Origin: Escherichia coli
GTDB lineage: Bacteria; Pseudomonadota; Gammaproteobacteria; Enterobacterales; Enterobacteriaceae
Strand: one strand, 5' to 3'
NCBI RefSeq assembly: GCF_044324785.1
Contig: NZ_CP172127.1
Length of the DNA stretch: 64,000 nucleotides
Positions 35,377 to 50,438 of this stretch are shown here, in pieces; the first letter of the stretch is position 1; the number at the start of each line of letters is the position of its first letter. The notes under the pieces were generated by a model. That model had not been told where the DNA came from, did not search any database, and saw only the letters and a list, made by a program, of their open reading frames with translations. Made by a program: the position numbers and the translations under genes.

Positions 35377-36116
35377 GTAACTGGCCTTATCCCCGCATCG
35401 TCGCCCATCGTGGCGGCGGTAAACTGGCCCCGGAAAACACCCTGGCGGCAATCGACGTGGGGGCAAAATACGGTCATAAGATGATCGAATTTGACGCGAA
35501 GTTATCGAAAGATGGCGAGATCTTCCTGCTCCATGACGACAATCTCGAACGTACCAGCAACGGCTGGGGCGTCGCGGGTGAACTGAACTGGCAGGATTTA
35601 CTACGCGTGGATGCGGGCAGTTGGTACAGCAAAGCGTTTAAAGGTGAGCCGCTGCCGTTGCTTTCGCAGGTGGCGGAACGCTGTCGCGAACACGGGATGA
35701 TGGCGAATATCGAAATCAAACCCACCACTGGCACCGGGCCATTAACGGGCAAAACGGTGGCGCTGGCGGCACGCGAACTGTGGGCCGATATGACGCCGCC
35801 GCTGCTGTCATCGTTTGAGATTGATGCTTTAGAAGCTGCACAACAGGCGGCACCGGAACTGCCGCGCGGTTTATTGCTTGATGAGTGGCGCGACGACTGG
35901 CGAGAACTGACCGCGCGGCTGGGCTGCGTCTCTATTCATCTCAATCATAAGTTGCTCGATAAAGCGCGAGTGATGCAGTTGAAAGACGCCGGATTACGGA
36001 TTCTGGTTTATACCGTCAATAAACCCCAGCGCGCGGCAGAGTTGCTGCGCTGGGGCGTGGATTGCATCTGTACCGATGCGATTGACGTGATTGGTCCGAA
36101 CTTTACGGCCCAATAG
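35373..36116 (+). CDS. ugpQ: Glycerophosphodiester phosphodiesterase UgpQ
   Basis: 247 aa with the GDPD-family N-terminus ([18 protein letters not shown]). Confidence 0.93.
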
Positions 36117-36543
36117 TTTTCAACGGAATATCAGGCTGCGGCGTGCTGGGCTGATTCAGCATGTCGCCGTTTCTCCTCTCCGGCAGCATATGCTGCTGAT
36201 TCAACGAACTATCCGGATTACGGTTGCTGTTTAACATCCCGCCGTTGGTGTTGGGCAGCATTTGCTGCCGGGCGGGATTTCGCTCCCCCGGCTGTGACTG
36301 CAACACCCGCTGAGAATTATTGTTTATCTGGTTTTCTAAATGCTGTTGTTGCAACTGAGTTTGCGTTTTCAGTTGCTGATTCAGCATCCCTTTTTGCTGG
36401 ATTTGCTGCGTTTGCATTTGAGTCTGCATCCGCTGCTGGCTGGGGATCTGATATCCCGGCTGGTTGGGGTTGTTCAGAGTATTAATGGGCTGTGCAAAGC
36501 CGACAAACGGCAGGAGTGCCGTAAGAATCAGAAGTCGTTTCAT
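36103..36543 (-). CDS. yhhA: Gln-rich secreted protein YhhA (DUF2756)
   Basis: 146 aa with signal peptide and Q-rich low-complexity repeats; converges on ugpQ with a 14-bp overlap. Confidence 0.8.
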
Positions 36544-38408: not shown

Positions 38409-38445
38409 GGTTAGCGGCTCTCTTCGTGGGAAGAGGGCCGTATTG

Positions 38446-38730
38446 TCAGGGCAAGCCGAAGGTAGCCTTTTTTATTTCATAATCCTGTAGATATTCTTCC
38501 AGCGGCTTTGCCGTTCCAAGGGAATGAATTTCACCACTGTCTTTATCAATAATAAAAGGTGCGTTACCGGCTAAACGCGCGGCCTCATCTCCAGATTCAA
38601 GAAATTCTTGTGATTCGAAACAGAAATACCAGCCCTGGCTAAAACGTCCATGCAGAGTGATGACGACAGGGAGATCTGCATCATCAAGGTAATGGTTCGC
38701 TTTCGCGAATGCGTCGTGATAAGTAATCAT
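38446..38730 (-). CDS. yrhB: Small stress protein YrhB
   Basis: 94-aa ORF (MITYHDAFAKANHYLDDADLPVV) in the expected position. Confidence 0.75.
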   Translation of the reverse strand: MITYHDAFAKANHYLDDADLPVVITLHGRFSQGWYFCFESQEFLESGDEAARLAGNAPFIIDKDSGEIHSLGTAKPLEEYLQDYEIKKATFGLP

Positions 38731-39188
38731 AATTATAATAAATATTATTGTTGATCGTTATATTATTATTCTTGCGTTATACTTTGAGAAAAGACGCGTT
38801 CATCTTCGTCAAAGATATTATAAAATGCTGGTTTTGAAAAAAGTTCATCGGATAATATACAGTCACGAAATAAGTATCTGCTAATATTTTGTGATTTCTT
38901 TTTCAGAACGTCGAACGGGATTTTCTTATTTAAGATATCAGAATCTTATGATTCGGGTGAAATTCTAACTAAATCAACATGTCACTAAAATCATCATAGC
39001 CATTAGCTATTTCGGCTAAAATGGCTAAAATAGAGATTACATGTCTTCGGTCCATCTCACTTAAGGAGTGTAGTTCCGTTGTAAGTTTTTCCATAGCTTG
39101 CATTGCTAAGTTTCGAACAAGGAATTTTCTGCTGGTAATCTCTAAAAAGATGGCATGGTTTACAATGATTTTTGTTACCTTTTGATTA

Positions 39189-39683
39189 TTATGAACAACT
39201 GTCCATGATTTCGTTTAAGAATGAAGAGAAATCACTAAACGAACTGAATATATTTTCGGTGCCAATATTATCTCTAATTTCAAAAAAGTTACTTTTAATG
39301 TCATAAGTAAATATTGAAATGCTATCATCACCGATCACTAACCGTTCTTGTAGATCAGGGTTTATGAAATCATCATTATTTCTATAAAATTCATTTACGG
39401 CAAAAAGGTTTTTAACTGAAGGTTCTGGAATCGAGAGGCTAAATAATCGTAATCCATTAGCTTCGAATCCATCCATTGCTCTTAAAAAAGTAAGATAATC
39501 AGGTTGATTCTTAAAAAGAATACTAACTTCATTACATAACTTCTCCAGGCAATTAGTTGAATTAGAATTAAATTCTATTTGGATTATACTTTCAATAAAT
39601 GATTCCTTGAGCGGTGCTTCAAATGGATGGTCTAAATCATTCATCATTTTTTTTAATTTATTTATTTGGGTTTTAGTCATCAT
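39189..39683 (-). CDS. yrhA: YrhA, uninterrupted; candidate immunity protein for the upstream Hcp-nuclease
   Basis: 164-aa ORF, low GC, immediately downstream of yhhZ with an ATGA stop/start overlap. In K-12 I recall this gene as a pseudogene disrupted by IS1; no IS1 sequence is present here. Confidence 0.6.
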   Translation of the reverse strand: MMTKTQINKLKKMMNDLDHPFEAPLKESFIESIIQIEFNSNSTNCLEKLCNEVSILFKNQPDYLTFLRAMDGFEANGLRLFSLSIPEPSVKNLFAVNEFYRNNDDFINPDLQERLVIGDDSISIFTYDIKSNFFEIRDNIGTENIFSSFSDFSSFLNEIMDSCS

Positions 39684-40858
39684 TTTGTGGGTTCCATAAT
39701 ATTTTTCATGAGAGGATAAATTGAGCCAGATGGAATGGCCCAGGGAGTGATTTTGCTTTCACCTACTAATATTCCCTTAGCTATTCGTGATTGCATGTTA
39801 GTAAAAACTTTATGATATGGTTCGTTTTCGATTAATACTAAATTTTCGAAATCATTAGTACCACCATCATCTAGAGATAGTTTATGGTGAACATTATAAT
39901 TTAGAGGAACATTGCCCTTTCTCATTCTTAAAAGGTCTTCGGCGTTGAATCTTCCAGATGCTTCGGAGGTTTTTGCAAGTTTGATAAGAAAATTTTTTCT
40001 TACAGTTTTATTAAACTCCTTTCGTAAGTTAGCTAAGTCTTTTGAAGGTCTCTTAATGTATATTATTTCTATTATGTCTATACCATCAAGAAGTTTTTGT
40101 TGACCTCTAAGTTTGCCTAAGTAACTATTTATTTCTGTATATGTATCAACATTAGAACGCTTTGTTAAAAGAATAGATGCTGTTGCTATCGCTATGCCCG
40201 CTGTTTTTTCATTTAGTATTTGATCATAGCCTTTGATTGCATCTCCACCCAGTTTTTCCGCAGTATCTCTGAATCCTTCAATGTTCCCATTGTATACGCC
40301 ACCAGCAGCAAGTAGCCTGCCAACAGCTTCGCTGTTTAACGTTTTTAAACCATTATTTGTTTTGTTTTTTGAATTTGGTAAAAACAAGCGGTTATAATTT
40401 TCAGGGAGTGCCAAATAGCTGAACTCGGTGTTAGTGATAAGATGTTGGCAGAGGATAAATTCATAACTAACAGTTATTGTTTCTGTATCCAGCTGGTTTT
40501 CAATGATCTGGTGATGAATAGCCGATAAAAAAGCGCCTCTTAGTTGTATATAATAATACTTTTCCCATCTACCAAATCTATTTATTCGATAGAAGTCAAA
40601 TCCCATAAATAATTGTTCATTATTGTTAATGGAATTAATAAATAATGGAGTGCTTTTATCAATTAATTTACAAAATGTTATACCATGGAACTGTGAACCA
40701 AGCCCCGTATTAGAAATACTATTTAAGAGTGAGAATGTAAATATTTCATTCTCATGCCCGCTCTGCCAGCGATTACCTATAGATTCAGTAGTCCCACAAC
40801 CTGCGGAGATGCTTCCTTGTTGTTCTCCCGTTACTGTCAGATAAATAATATTACTCAT
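39680..40858 (-). CDS. yhhZ: Hcp (T6SS tube protein) fused to a C-terminal HNH / colicin-DNase-like nuclease domain
   Basis: 392 aa. The N-terminal 120 aa is Hcp-like; the C-terminus carries an HNH pattern, NVHHKLSLDDGGTNDFENLVLIENEPYH (His-His codons at 39884..39889 on the minus strand). Low-GC gene. Confidence 0.75.
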   Translation of the reverse strand: MSNIIYLTVTGEQQGSISAGCGTTESIGNRWQSGHENEIFTFSLLNSISNTGLGSQFHGITFCKLIDKSTPLFINSINNNEQLFMGFDFYRINRFGRWEKYYYIQLRGAFLSAIHHQIIENQLDTETITVSYEFILCQHLITNTEFSYLALPENYNRLFLPNSKNKTNNGLKTLNSEAVGRLLAAGGVYNGNIEGFRDTAEKLGGDAIKGYDQILNEKTAGIAIATASILLTKRSNVDTYTEINSYLGKLRGQQKLLDGIDIIEIIYIKRPSKDLANLRKEFNKTVRKNFLIKLAKTSEASGRFNAEDLLRMRKGNVPLNYNVHHKLSLDDGGTNDFENLVLIENEPYHKVFTNMQSRIAKGILVGESKITPWAIPSGSIYPLMKNIMEPTK

Positions 40859-41093
40859 CCCTGAAAAGTCCTTTTATAGCATGCTATTTTATCAATGGCA
40901 CTATTATGCTTGTTAATTGTTATTTATTTACTCCAGGAAATTGTAGGCGTATATATTAAAAAATAAAATATTACACTTTAGGAAGTAATTATGAGGTAAA
41001 TCTCATATATTTATTGGGAAAATAAATACATTAAAGGAAGGTATGCCGATTTTGAATGACACCCTTTTTCCATCTCAGAAAAAGGGCACTATC

Positions 41094-41582
41094 TTACTTC
41101 ACCCGCGCCATATAATACGCATCGACATATTCACCATTACGTAATGCGTACTTTTTGCCAGTCCCTTCAATCTCAAAGCCGAATTTTTTATAGACCTTAA
41201 TTGCTGGCGCGTTATCGACGAACACCGTTAGTTCAATACGATCTACCCGCAACCAGTTATCGCACATTTCAATCATCTCTCGCATCAGGGCACTGGCGAC
41301 ACCGCGATTCTTCCAGCGGGCGTCGACACAGATACCAAAATCGGCAACATGACTGCGGCGCGGGCGTTGTTGCACGTCAATGGTGAGATGGCCTACGACG
41401 ATTCCATCAATACAGGCGACTAACTGCTTGATGCCGGGACGATCGGCGAGTCGCTCCTGCCACATATGATCGGAAGGATGAGGCACCTGTAGTGTGTTGC
41501 AATACACCTCCGGCTGGGCGTGAATCTGCCTGATGGCCTCGTAATCCCGTGTTTCTGCGTGGCGTATTACTATCTCACTCAT
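41094..41582 (-). CDS. yhhY: GNAT-family N-acetyltransferase YhhY
   Basis: Start at MSEIVIRHAETRDYEAI gives 162 aa; acetyl-CoA-binding region around RWKNRGVASALMREM. Confidence 0.85.
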   Translation of the reverse strand: MSEIVIRHAETRDYEAIRQIHAQPEVYCNTLQVPHPSDHMWQERLADRPGIKQLVACIDGIVVGHLTIDVQQRPRRSHVADFGICVDARWKNRGVASALMREMIEMCDNWLRVDRIELTVFVDNAPAIKVYKKFGFEIEGTGKKYALRNGEYVDAYYMARVK

Positions 41583-41914
41583 TCCTTTGTCCTCTTTGGG
41601 GTAAATGTCCCTTTCAACATCATTGACTTTCACATACGAGTCAAATGCATTTTTTTGCAAAAAGTGTTGGACAAGTGCGAATGAGAATGATTATTATTGT
41701 CTCGCGATCAGGAAGACCCTCGCGGAGAACCTGAAAGCACGACATTGCTCACATTGCTTCCAGTATTACTTAGCCAGCCGGGTGCTGGCTTTTTTTTTGA
41801 TCTTTCGTTCTCAATTTATCCACGGGAGTGCTTGTGTTCGTTATGCGCACTCCAGTAGGAACCACGTCCGCTTTGCGCTAAGGTGTAAATAACCACCTTA
41901 AAAAGGACGAAATC

Positions 41915-47139: not shown

Positions 47140-49236
47140 ATGGAAAAGCACGGAGCTGAATTGCTTTTACAGCGGATGTTAGGAAATACCACCGCTACTT
47201 TCAGGGAAGGGCAATGGGAAGCCATAGATGCAGTGGTTAATCAGCGGCGAAAACTGCTGGTTGTACAGCGCACCGGCTGGGGGAAAAGTGCCGTGTACTT
47301 CATCGCCAGTAAAATCTTCCGAGATCGCGGCGCTGGCCCGACAATTATCATCTCTCCTTTGCTTGCCCTGATGCGTAACCAGGTTGCCGCCGCTGAACGG
47401 TTAGGTATTACGGCTGAAACGTTGAATTCTACAAACAGGGAAGAATGGCAGCGCATTAGCGATAAGTTGCTGCAAGGTGAGGTCGATTGCTTGCTGGTTT
47501 CCCCGGAACGATTGGCAAACCAGGACTTTATCGAAACGGTTTTATATCCTATAGCCGATCGTATTGGCTTGCTTGTGGTCGACGAGGCGCACTGCATCTC
47601 TGATTGGGGCCACGATTTTCGCCCGGATTACCGACGTATATTAGATATTTTGCGCCAACTGCCTGCGAATACCCCTGTTCTGGGTACAACCGCGACAGCG
47701 AATAACCGTGTTGTTGAGGATATCCGTCAGCAATTGGGTGACATTGTGATTCAGCGTGGAACGCTGGCTCGCGAAAGTTTGGCGCTTGATGCCTTAGTCT
47801 TAGGAGAACAGTCATCCCGTCTGGCATGGTTAGCAACGGTTATCCCTCAGTTTTCCAAATCGGGAATTGTTTATACCCTGACGACTCGCGATGCTGAACT
47901 TGTCGCCGAGTGGTTAAGGAAAAATGGTATCAGTGCATTTGCTTACTACAGCGGCGTGACTTGTGAAGGCGCGGAAGATTCTAATACTGCCAGGGAATAT
48001 CTGGAGCAGGCACTGCTGGCAAATAAAATCAAAGTGCTGGTCGCGACGACGGCATTAGGTATGGGGTTTGATAAACCTGATTTAGGTTTCGTCATTCATT
48101 ATCAGATGCCGGGGTCTATTGTCGGTTACTACCAACAGGTGGGGCGTGCCGGTCGTGCTATAGATTCCGCAGTTGGCATATTGCTTTGTGGTGGTGAAGA
48201 CCGCGCTATTCATCAATTCTTCCGTGAAAGCGCCTTTCCTGCGGAGGCGCAAATTCATGAAATACTCAACGTACTTAGCGAGAATGACGGTCTTACCCTA
48301 CGAGGCATTGAACAACGGACGAATCTTCGTTATGGGCAAATAGAAAAAGCACTGAAATTATTGGTAGCGGAAAATCCATCGCCTGTGGTGTATACCGAGA
48401 AATTATGGCGCAGAACTATCGTCAGTTTTTCTCCTGATCATGAACGAATTAACCATTTGATGAATCAGAGAAAAAGTGAGCTGGCAGACGTTGAAAGCTA
48501 TATCACGACCAAGGAGTGCAAAATGCAATTTCTGCGCCGTGCACTCGATGAGCCAAGTGCCGAACGTTGTGGTAAATGTAGCAGTTGTCTTCAGCATCCG
48601 TTATTGTCGCCCGACATTGATAGCGGCTTACTCCATGCGGCAAATTTATTTATTAAACACGCTGACCTGCCGTTAAATCTCAATAAACAGGTGGCAGCTG
48701 GGGCTTTTACGCAATACGGATTTAAAGGGAACTTGCCTGCGGGTTTACAAGGATCTACGGGGCGAATCCTTTCTCGTTGGGGAGATTCCGGGTGGGGAAA
48801 GCAGGTAGCACAGGAGAAAAAAACGGGGCGCTTCAGTGATGAGCTGGTAGAAGCATGTGCGGAAATGGTTCGCCAACGCTGGAATCCGCATCCTGAACCA
48901 ACCTGGGTATGCTGCGTTCCTTCATTAAGGCACCTCGACCTGGTTCCTGATTTTGCCCGGCGACTGGCGGCGAAACTTGGCTTACCTTTTATTGATGCCA
49001 TTGAAAAAGTCGTGGACAATCCACCGCAGAAAATGCAGCAAAACCGTTTTCACCAGTGTCAAAATCTCGACGGGGCGTTTGTGATTACCCCTCCTTTGAT
49101 GCCAGGTCCGGCGTTGCTGGTTGACGATATCGTGGATTCTGCATGGACGCTGACAGTTCTGACAGCACTGTTACGCCAGGCAGGTTGCCCGACGGTTTAT
49201 CCTCTTGCCCTTGCTTCTACCTCGGTAAAAAATTGA
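47140..49236 (+). CDS. RecQ-like SF2 DNA helicase fused to a C-terminal ComF/GntX-type phosphoribosyltransferase-fold domain
   Basis: 698 aa. Walker A TGWGKS (47272..47289); DEAH box with RecQ signature VVDEAHCISDWGHDFRPDY (DEAH at 47581..47592); GTTATA; YYQQVGRAGR; Cys cluster CKMQ...CGKCSSC. The C-terminal 180 aa carry the PRTase motif LLVDDIVDSAWTLT (Asp-Asp codons from 49123). AGGAG Shine-Dalgarno 8 nt upstream. Confidence 0.85.
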   Translation: MEKHGAELLLQRMLGNTTATFREGQWEAIDAVVNQRRKLLVVQRTGWGKSAVYFIASKIFRDRGAGPTIIISPLLALMRNQVAAAERLGITAETLNSTNREEWQRISDKLLQGEVDCLLVSPERLANQDFIETVLYPIADRIGLLVVDEAHCISDWGHDFRPDYRRILDILRQLPANTPVLGTTATANNRVVEDIRQQLGDIVIQRGTLARESLALDALVLGEQSSRLAWLATVIPQFSKSGIVYTLTTRDAELVAEWLRKNGISAFAYYSGVTCEGAEDSNTAREYLEQALLANKIKVLVATTALGMGFDKPDLGFVIHYQMPGSIVGYYQQVGRAGRAIDSAVGILLCGGEDRAIHQFFRESAFPAEAQIHEILNVLSENDGLTLRGIEQRTNLRYGQIEKALKLLVAENPSPVVYTEKLWRRTIVSFSPDHERINHLMNQRKSELADVESYITTKECKMQFLRRALDEPSAERCGKCSSCLQHPLLSPDIDSGLLHAANLFIKHADLPLNLNKQVAAGAFTQYGFKGNLPAGLQGSTGRILSRWGDSGWGKQVAQEKKTGRFSDELVEACAEMVRQRWNPHPEPTWVCCVPSLRHLDLVPDFARRLAAKLGLPFIDAIEKVVDNPPQKMQQNRFHQCQNLDGAFVITPPLMPGPALLVDDIVDSAWTLTVLTALLRQAGCPTVYPLALASTSVKN

Positions 49237-50438
49237 TGAATCTTTCAGCCAATGCACAAGCGACTCTCCTGCTAACCAGCGATTTTTCTCGCGCGGCGGC
49301 GAGTGAGTATAAACCTCTTAGTAATAGTGAATGGGGGAAGTTTGCATTATGGCTGAAGCACCAACGTATCAGTCCCGCCGATCTTCTGGTACCGCAACCG
49401 CAAGAGAAACTTACAGGCTGGAGCGATCCGCGTATTTCTCAGGAGCGTATTCTTGGCTTGCTGGCGCGTGGTCATAGTCTGGCGTTGGCGGTAGATAAGT
49501 GGCAACGCGCCGGATTATGGATCTTAACCCGCGGAGATGCCGATTATCCCGTTCGCTTGAAAAACCGATTGCGAACGGATGCTCCTCCCGTTTTATTTGG
49601 CTGCGGGAATAAAGCATTATTGCAAGCGGAAGGTATGGCGATTGTTGGCTCGCGAGATGCTCCGACTGACGATTTGCGCTATACCCAACAACTGGCAGCG
49701 AAACTGGCCCAACAGGGGATTTGCGTTATCTCTGGTGGTGCGCGAGGTATTGATGAATGTGCAATGGCGTCGGCACTGGAGGCCGGGGGAACTGCCGTTG
49801 GCGTATTAGCTGATAGCTTGTTAAAAACGAGCACGTTAGTGAAATGGCGTGAAGGGCTTATAGCAGGCAACCTGGTGTTGATTTCACCGTTTTACCCAGA
49901 GGTACGTTTCACTGTCGGCAATGCGATGGCGCGGAATAAATATATTTATTGCCTTGCTGAAAGCGCAATGGTTGTACGTGCGGGAATGACCGGTGGAACG
50001 ATAACCGGAGCGATGGAGGCGTTAAAACATCAGTGGCTGCCTGTTCTGGTTAAACCAAATCAGGATGTGCAATCAGCCAATTCACGATTAGTAGAAAATG
50101 GGGCGTCATGGAGTGCTGAACAGGCTGAGAATGTGACGATCAGACTGCCAGATGTTCCTGGGCTGATGTATGACAGAGCACTCCGTAACGCTCAACCAGA
50201 ATTGTTTTCGCTGCTCGAAGATGACGCAAATTACGCAGTAATGCCCGCGCATACCCCTGTCGATTTTTATCAACTCTTTGTGGCGGAACTGGCGATCCTT
50301 GCAAAGGAATCGATAAGTATTGAAAGGCTGGCGTCTTGTACTGGTTTAACCATCGAACAAATTAGTGTGTGGCTGAACCGCGCAGAAGAAGAGGGAAGGG
50401 TTATCCGATTGGGCGAAGGTCATTATCAGTTCAGGTAA
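49236..50438 (+). CDS. DprA/Smf-like (SLOG Rossmann) protein with a C-terminal winged-helix-like region
   Basis: DprA core motifs AIVGSRDAPTDDL, ISGGARGIDECAM, NAMARNKYIYCLAE and VVRAGMTGGT. Start chosen at the ATG sharing one base with the upstream TGA stop (400 aa); an in-frame ATG at 49143 would give 431 aa. Confidence 0.8.
   Translation: MNLSANAQATLLLTSDFSRAAASEYKPLSNSEWGKFALWLKHQRISPADLLVPQPQEKLTGWSDPRISQERILGLLARGHSLALAVDKWQRAGLWILTRGDADYPVRLKNRLRTDAPPVLFGCGNKALLQAEGMAIVGSRDAPTDDLRYTQQLAAKLAQQGICVISGGARGIDECAMASALEAGGTAVGVLADSLLKTSTLVKWREGLIAGNLVLISPFYPEVRFTVGNAMARNKYIYCLAESAMVVRAGMTGGTITGAMEALKHQWLPVLVKPNQDVQSANSRLVENGASWSAEQAENVTIRLPDVPGLMYDRALRNAQPELFSLLEDDANYAVMPAHTPVDFYQLFVAELAILAKESISIERLASCTGLTIEQISVWLNRAEEEGRVIRLGEGHYQFR

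Follow-up and report, generated by a model that had tools for sequence, protein, structure and literature searches.

The present analysis concerns a pair of adjacent genes, yhhZ and yrhA, carried in an AT-rich islet between ggt and yhhY on a 64,000-nucleotide stretch of Escherichia coli DNA (the window, to which all coordinates refer). The pair is very probably a chromosomal orphan effector-immunity module of a type VI secretion system (T6SS), orthologous to Hcp-ET1/ETI1 of E. coli; the module has already been described and is not a discovery. Both genes lie on the minus strand, with the following features:

39680..40858, minus strand: yhhZ (tssD in RefSeq), an Hcp-linker-HNH toxin of 392 amino acids and probable Hcp-ET1 orthologue, from its open reading frame (ORF), domain matches and identity.
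40409..40858, minus strand: Hcp/TssD tube-protein domain of YhhZ, residues 1-150, from TIGR03344, Pfam and PDB.
40130..40408, minus strand: conserved linker or pre-toxin segment, residues 151-243, with the core motif TLNSKAVGRLLAAGGVYNGNIEGFRxTAEKLGGDA.
39683..40129, minus strand: predicted toxin domain of the His-Me finger / HNH nuclease kind, residues 244-392, of which 244-386 make up the folded core.
39812..39889, minus strand: predicted catalytic beta-beta-alpha-metal motif VHHKLSLDDGGTNDFENLVLIENEPYH, with H324, H325, N335, N339 and H349, from an alignment of 35 sequences.
39189..39683, minus strand: yrhA, a SUKH-fold immunity protein of 164 amino acids and probable ETI1 orthologue, from its ORF, the start of which overlaps the yhhZ stop (ATGA).

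A first-pass annotation of this DNA, made from the sequence alone, had placed the two genes at these positions with an ATGA overlap, and had proposed that YhhZ fuses an Hcp domain to an HNH or colicin-type deoxyribonuclease (DNase) and that yrhA encodes the cognate immunity protein. Two minus-strand ORFs were found exactly there, and at their junction the minus strand reads ...ACA AAA TGA TGA CTA..., so that the start of yrhA overlaps the stop of yhhZ as ATGA. The other two proposals were also borne out, the fusion by a strong Hcp family match, conserved catalytic residues and profile matches to Cas8f-HNH and the colicins, and the immunity assignment by the fold of YrhA and by the recurrence of its family directly after the toxin domain in other bacteria.

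The Hcp domain of YhhZ is complete, being matched over the full length of the family above the curated threshold. With TIGR03344 it reaches 118.6 bits, the cutoff being 58.9, and YhhZ residues 1-147 are paired with profile positions 1-161 of 167. Pfam T6SS_HCP (PF05638) matches at 1.7e-10, and for solved Hcp structures the E values run from 4e-11, obtained with the PDB Hcp3 structure 3he1, to 3e-6.

Homology to proteins of Bacillus, Listeria and other Firmicutes begins at residues 244-246, and this marks the start of the toxin domain proper. A search with YhhZ residues 182-392 as the query found 154 relatives, and in an alignment of 35 homologues from Proteobacteria and Firmicutes the residues H324, H325, N335, N339 and H349 are each kept in at least 90% of the sequences, in the context VHHKLPLDDGGTNDFxNLxLIxNEPYH. 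The profile of the toxin family matches the HNH domain of Cas8f-HNH at E=5.6e-4, with the catalytic motif aligned there, and matches the colicin E7/E9 and pyocin DNases at E values of 0.04-0.3; Pfam HNH is found at E<=0.001 in 2 of 20 YhhZ relatives. The domain has the beta-beta-alpha-metal fold, its best structural match is CRISPR Cas8-HNH, and its other matches include colicin E7/E9, Rhs2-CT, NucB and GVE2 HNH. A published classification of His-Me nucleases already places YhhZ as group 32. YhhZ carries at its C-terminus a His-Me/HNH nuclease domain in which the catalytic residues are intact. An Hcp domain and an HNH-DNase toxin thus occur in one polypeptide, as in the Hcp-ET1 subtype, and this Hcp-HNH architecture of YhhZ was noted already in 2009, 2012 and 2017.

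The classification of YrhA is more involved. The NCBIfam YrhA/YPO0640 family matches the protein with 126.1 bits against a cutoff of 55, while a Pfam search of YrhA gave no direct family match. A shallow profile of 21 YrhA sequences matched only antibodies in the PDB, and these matches were judged spurious. When 1.84 billion representative proteins were searched with a profile, 113 YrhA relatives were recovered, and a profile of 67 sequences matches PDB 2icg at 1.7e-5; among these 67 relatives Pfam finds SMI1_KNR4 in 25, SUKH_6 in 18 and SUKH_5 in 14, so that the sequence link between YrhA and SUKH is a transitive one, made through the relatives in the profile. YrhA has the SUKH alpha+beta fold, and its likenesses include 2icg, 2prv, 2pag and 3d5p, which are reference structures of the SUKH superfamily, as well as the T6SS immunity protein Tdi1 (8.3) and the SUKH immunity protein RhsPI (5.0). 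SUKH proteins have been proposed as the immunity system against nuclease toxins, those of the HNH type among them, and YrhA belongs by its fold to this class.

The pairing of toxin domain and YrhA family is found again in two distant settings. In Enterobacter cloacae, a DUF8093-linker-toxin protein that has no Hcp domain is followed after 18 bp by a 164-amino acid YrhA-family gene (120.6 bits; 56% identical to the YrhA of the window), and in Bacillus carboniphilus a toxin-domain cassette in an LXG (type VII) locus is followed by a YrhA-family gene of 142 amino acids (138.4 bits). Because the pairing recurs in both, the toxin domain goes together with the YrhA family irrespective of the delivery domain, as would be the case for a cognate toxin-immunity pair.

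The assignment to Hcp-ET1/ETI1 is based on position, architecture and identity. In two reviews (PMC6730261, PMC6099711) and a preprint (10.1101/2024.03.05.583533), Hcp-ET1 of strains STEC004, C227-11 (O104:H4) and 55989 is described as an orphan Hcp with an HNH-DNase extension; the same sources, relaying Ma et al. 2017 (Virulence 8:1189), state that in STEC004 Hcp-ET1 degrades target DNA and needs T6SS2 for its delivery, and that it is neutralised by the downstream ETI1. The preprint also reports an orphan Hcp-HNH gene and downstream gene that are 99% identical to Hcp-ET1/ETI1 of C227-11/55989. C227-11 and 55989 both hold the same 392-amino acid protein at ggt/yhhY; compared with the proteins of these strains, YhhZ of the window is 95.4% identical and YrhA 97.6%. 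The window and C227-11 differ by 18 substitutions in YhhZ: the Hcp domain together with the beginning of the linker has 14, residue 300 is another, the last three are at the extreme C-terminus, and the catalytic motif is spared. One review assigns the locus tag AAF13_24945 to Hcp-ET1; in RefSeq, AAF13_RS24945 of C227-11 is yrhA and AAF13_RS24950 is tssD, the two lying between ggt and yhhY. The toxin-domain DNA is essentially single-copy, with 3810 places in 3789 genomes. The same locus, the same pair of genes for 392 and 164 amino acids and the same architecture make the relationship one of orthology, not analogy.

The YhhZ/YrhA pair of K-12 (b3442 region) consists of the same genes at the same position, and its YhhZ is 95.7% identical to that of the window. 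In K-12 yhhZ is intact, but an IS1 element (IS1E) interrupts yrhA and replaces its last ~35 residues, whereas the yrhA of the window is intact. A comparison of yhhZ with the K-12 strain W3110 gave a rate of synonymous substitution (dS) of 0.081 and 10 non-synonymous changes in the Hcp-coding part and 0 synonymous changes in the toxin-coding part; this uneven divergence, in which the counts are small, suggests recombination within the gene or separate histories of its two halves.

The colicin E7/E9 and pyocin S2/AP41 DNases and their Im proteins likewise combine a His-Me finger, an HH...N...H metal site and an antibacterial toxin with a small immunity protein encoded downstream. In Serratia marcescens Rhs2-CT/RhsI2 and in RhsP(WHH)/RhsPI the carrier is a PAAR/Rhs cage, in contrast to the Hcp fusion of YhhZ, and the identity is only ~22%. 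Bacillus subtilis YobL-YobK and other LXG (type VII) toxin-SUKH pairs have a different secretion system and N-terminal domain and are without the Gram-negative linker. Usp/Hcp-ET3-4 of uropathogenic E. coli and Hcp-Colicin_D of Citrobacter join an Hcp N-terminal domain to a nuclease toxin, as YhhZ does, but their toxin domains (pyocin S3, colicin DNase, Colicin_D) and immunity genes are others.

The three-part layout of YhhZ was drawn from pairwise comparisons with homologues, and these comparisons single out the linker as a unit. Hcp proteins of Citrobacter and Salmonella have both the Hcp domain and the linker in common with YhhZ, up to residues 229-234; the former is the Hcp-Colicin_D protein, and the latter has a different C-terminus. 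The linker is also found in a PAAR-Tox-HNH-EHHH protein and in proteins of Enterobacter, Serratia and Erwinia with a DUF8093 N-terminus, and it is absent from the Firmicute homologues of the YhhZ toxin. Its invariant core among homologues, NSKxxGRLLAAGGxYNGNxxGF...A..LGG, is followed in YhhZ by a short hydrophobic helix. A Pfam search of residues 151-243 gave no match, and the segment is poorly modelled, with low values of the predicted local distance difference test (pLDDT) in the structure model. Such swapping of the linker across carriers and C-termini is typical of polymorphic toxins. It is conceivable, although rather unlikely, that the ~90-residue linker is an undescribed portable module which joins Gram-negative carriers (Hcp, PAAR, DUF8093) to nucleic-acid toxins that act in the cytoplasm (HNH, Tox-HNH-EHHH, Colicin_D) and is left out of the Gram-positive type VII homologues; by analogy with the cytoplasm-entry domain of CdiA-CT, it might then serve as a domain for entry across the inner membrane.

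The islet in which the pair lies is a variable one:

38409..41094, no strand assigned: variable, AT-rich islet reaching from the stop codon of ggt to that of yhhY, from the GC profile and from junctions with the empty, yrhB-only and DUF4225 versions of the site.
40859..41093, minus strand: upstream intergenic region, where the yhhZ-yrhA promoter would be expected, from position only.

The first-pass annotation had described the pair as lying in AT-rich sequence between genes of normal GC content, had taken this as consistent with horizontal acquisition, and had noted that the window holds no T6SS structural genes, so that the module may be orphaned or served by a distant cluster. The contrast in composition is clear in the windowed GC profile (0.29-0.36 across ~38.6-41.2 kb and 0.50-0.59 on either side), and no T6SS genes were found within the window. 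The claim of acquisition holds in that the islet appears to be an acquired and variable one; it fails if taken to mean a recent event. Identity of the islet to strain 55989 is ~97%, and since its divergence is equal to, and not above, that of the flanking core genes, recent horizontal transfer was ruled out, and the islet is an old acquisition that has been inherited vertically and lost in some lineages.

The islet measures 2.7 kb, has ggt and yhhY as its borders, and gives the E. coli locus the gene order ggt / yrhB-yrhD-yrhA-yhhZ / yhhY. In a megablast search, at least 80% of a 2.9-kb islet query was found in 3757 of 5426 complete E. coli genomes, the best match being strain N3 (NZ_CP031609.1; 99.8%) and most other genomes being ~96.7% identical. 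At least four states of the ggt/yhhY site are known: the full islet; an empty site, seen in sequence type 131 (ST131), in which ~60 bp separate ggt and yhhY; yrhB alone, in some E. coli; and a DUF4225 gene that is unrelated to the islet. Because the DUF4225 gene sits there in place of the yhhZ islet in some E. coli, the site acts as a small hotspot of integration or replacement. The replacement by a single DUF4225 gene was observed in E. coli strain 150 (NZ_CP028592.1, 2343-3254).

A scan of the islet for promoter and terminator consensus sequences gave no better result than one of shuffled sequence, in which promoter-like sites were as frequent; a K-12 paper names yhhZp5 and yhhZp7 as the drivers of the operon. 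An Rfam scan found no RNA family inside the islet, and one sub-threshold match to a snoRNA was set aside as chance.

The two remaining genes of the islet are small:

38446..38730, minus strand: yrhB, Imm35, a predicted orphan immunity gene of the CdiI type, from a match to Pfam Imm35 (PF15567) at 1.4e-22.
38969..39103, minus strand: yrhD-like small ORF of 44 amino acids, annotated as yrhD or as a hypothetical protein in other strains.

Homologues of yrhB with 64-69% identity in Pectobacterium, Pantoea and Yersinia sit directly downstream of CdiA toxins, the CdiA proteins upstream of them end in PT-VENN, DUF6862 and Gln_amidase (Tox-PL1) domains, and an association of Imm35 with Tox-PL1 has been published. 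A tblastn search of the islet with four CdiA C-terminal regions for a remnant of the cognate toxin gave chance matches alone (E>=0.7), and a comparison of the yrhB-cognate toxins with yrhD found no remnant. Because the islet holds no CdiA-toxin remnant, yrhB is an orphan immunity gene of contact-dependent inhibition. The yrhD-like ORF is a truncated variant: compared to the 51-amino acid YrhD of K-12, C227-11 and 55989, it has an insertion of 3 residues and stops early, and it has no family match. None of the four islet proteins was matched by the defence models of PADLOC.

Assuming that the pair acts as Hcp-ET1/ETI1 is reported to act, one YhhZ subunit would join five ordinary Hcp subunits in a ring of the tube, because, as has been argued in the literature, the lumen of the Hcp ring has room for only one toxin-bearing Hcp. 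The contracting sheath would fire the YhhZ-bearing tube into a neighbouring bacterium, where the toxin domain, possibly aided by the linker, would reach the cytoplasm and cut DNA non-specifically, with H325 as the putative general base and with H324, H349 and the asparagines holding the metal and the fold. YrhA would bind and block the nuclease in the producer and its sister cells. If the strain is without a compatible T6SS, like K-12 and B, the toxin would not be delivered and only the immunity function would be useful.

Several points weigh against the assignment of the pair as a working Hcp-ET1/ETI1 module. For toxicity, the degradation of DNA, the dependence on T6SS2 and protection, the sources are the reviews and the preprint. 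The locus-tag match is one gene off, and it assumes that the RefSeq RS numbers mirror the GenBank tags. Pfam on its own gives HNH (PF01844) at a sub-threshold E value of 0.013 and Col-Pyo_DNase at 1.9, and a 2009 paper described the nuclease domain of YhhZ as degenerate. K-12 and B strains, which a review states to be without T6SS genes, have the islet. K-12 retains an intact yhhZ despite its IS1-truncated yrhA, and ~380 genomes hold less than 80% of yrhA (3783 versus 3404); because K-12 and these genomes tolerate an incomplete yrhA, the toxin must be either silent or, at its native levels, harmless inside the cell that makes it. The toxin-domain DNA is found in 3789 of 5426 complete E. coli genomes and is at least 99% identical in 3029, and ~70% of E. 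coli carry the immunity gene, so that use within the species would be limited to lineages that are free of the islet.

Some of these points could be accommodated if the module were an inert relic from an ancestor with a matching T6SS, now neither expressed nor delivered, and kept because loss is slow or by the immunity it gives against neighbours that fire the toxin. The occurrence of the islet in strains said to be without T6SS genes fits such an origin, as do the fact that the IS1-broken yrhA of K-12 is not lethal, the finding that the site can be empty or hold just yrhB or a DUF4225 gene, which indicates repeated loss or replacement, and the promoter scan that did no better than shuffled sequence. 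Decay is difficult to reconcile, however, with two ORFs that are both intact in DNA of 30% GC, where stop codons arise readily, or with the near-identity and single-copy state of the toxin domain in the genomes counted above, which point to purifying selection, and activity of the orthologue in STEC004 is reported in the reviews. The relic explanation is doubtful, although a real possibility, and it bears on the state of the module in this strain rather than on its identity. Another explanation would have the pair work inside the cell that makes it, either as a toxin-antitoxin pair or in abortive infection against phage, with YrhA restraining the HNH nuclease and with a vestigial Hcp domain. 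K-12 tolerates the loss of the YrhA C-terminus, which would not be expected of a toxin-antitoxin pair. The overlapping two-gene layout does resemble that of toxin-antitoxin pairs, HNH nucleases are common in defence systems, the best structural match is CRISPR Cas8-HNH, and a PsyrTA defence islet lies 6 kb away; but PADLOC gave no match for any islet protein, the complete Hcp domain scores above its curated cutoff, and the same toxin domain is borne elsewhere by PAAR, Hcp and LXG secretion modules, all of which makes an own-cell function highly improbable.

Two further alternatives concern the immunity protein and the target. The cognate immunity protein could be yrhB or yrhD, with YrhA in another role, since yrhB is a true Imm35 protein in the same islet and YrhA has no direct Pfam match. 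The relatives of yrhB, however, counter CdiA Gln_amidase/Tox-PL1 toxins and not nucleases, yrhB occurs at the site without yhhZ, the gene that follows the toxin domain in two distant taxa belongs to the YrhA family and not to Imm35, YrhA has the SUKH fold, and the literature places ETI1 as the gene directly downstream, so that this exchange of roles can be given hardly any credence. It is likewise improbable, though somewhat less so, that the C-terminal domain targets RNA (tRNA or rRNA) or merely nicks DNA instead of being a non-specific DNase: colicin E7/E9, Rhs2-CT, NucB and GVE2 HNH, which match its structure best, are DNA nucleases, the HH...N...N...H motif is likewise that of DNA nucleases, and the reviews report that target DNA is degraded.

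If YhhZ is the Hcp-ET1 weapon that its orthology indicates, it would mainly discriminate against islet-free lineages (e.g. ST131) and other species, because toxin and immunity gene alike are shared by ~70% of E. coli. There is little new in this for T6SS biology, and the practical value lies in annotation, as RefSeq labels the toxin merely tssD or Hcp1-family effector, and K-12 papers of 2024-2025 list yhhZ and yrhA as of unknown function. Once the K-12 names are tied to Hcp-ET1/ETI1, K-12 is seen to have an intact gene for a predicted DNase toxin next to an IS1-broken immunity gene, and the link may be relevant to events that lack an explanation, for example the spontaneous delta(yhhZ-yrhA) that a 2024 preprint reports in a topA mutant clone, where the genes are "of unknown function". 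A derepressed DNase toxin without its immunity protein could, speculatively, explain that deletion. Besides the K-12 name link, what remains of value is that yrhB is an orphan and that the shared linker is a possible undescribed entry module.

Several other features of the window were recorded outside the islet. The RyhB small RNA lies just beyond it, in the gap between yhhY and yhhX (41733-41797, plus strand; Rfam RF00057, 83.1 bits, E=2e-15). The yhhA gene (36103-36543, minus strand) is intact in the window and encodes 146 amino acids, while in the otherwise near-identical strain N3 it is annotated as frameshifted. Between gntU and yhgN there is an insertion of ~3.5 kb (47140-50438, plus strand), not present in strain 55989, which codes for a PsyrTA (RqlHI-type) defence or toxin-antitoxin pair: PsyrT, a RecQ-like helicase of 698 amino acids (PADLOC, 1067.8 bits), and PsyrA, a DprA-like protein of 431 amino acids (665.3 bits), the ORFs of which overlap by 94 bp.

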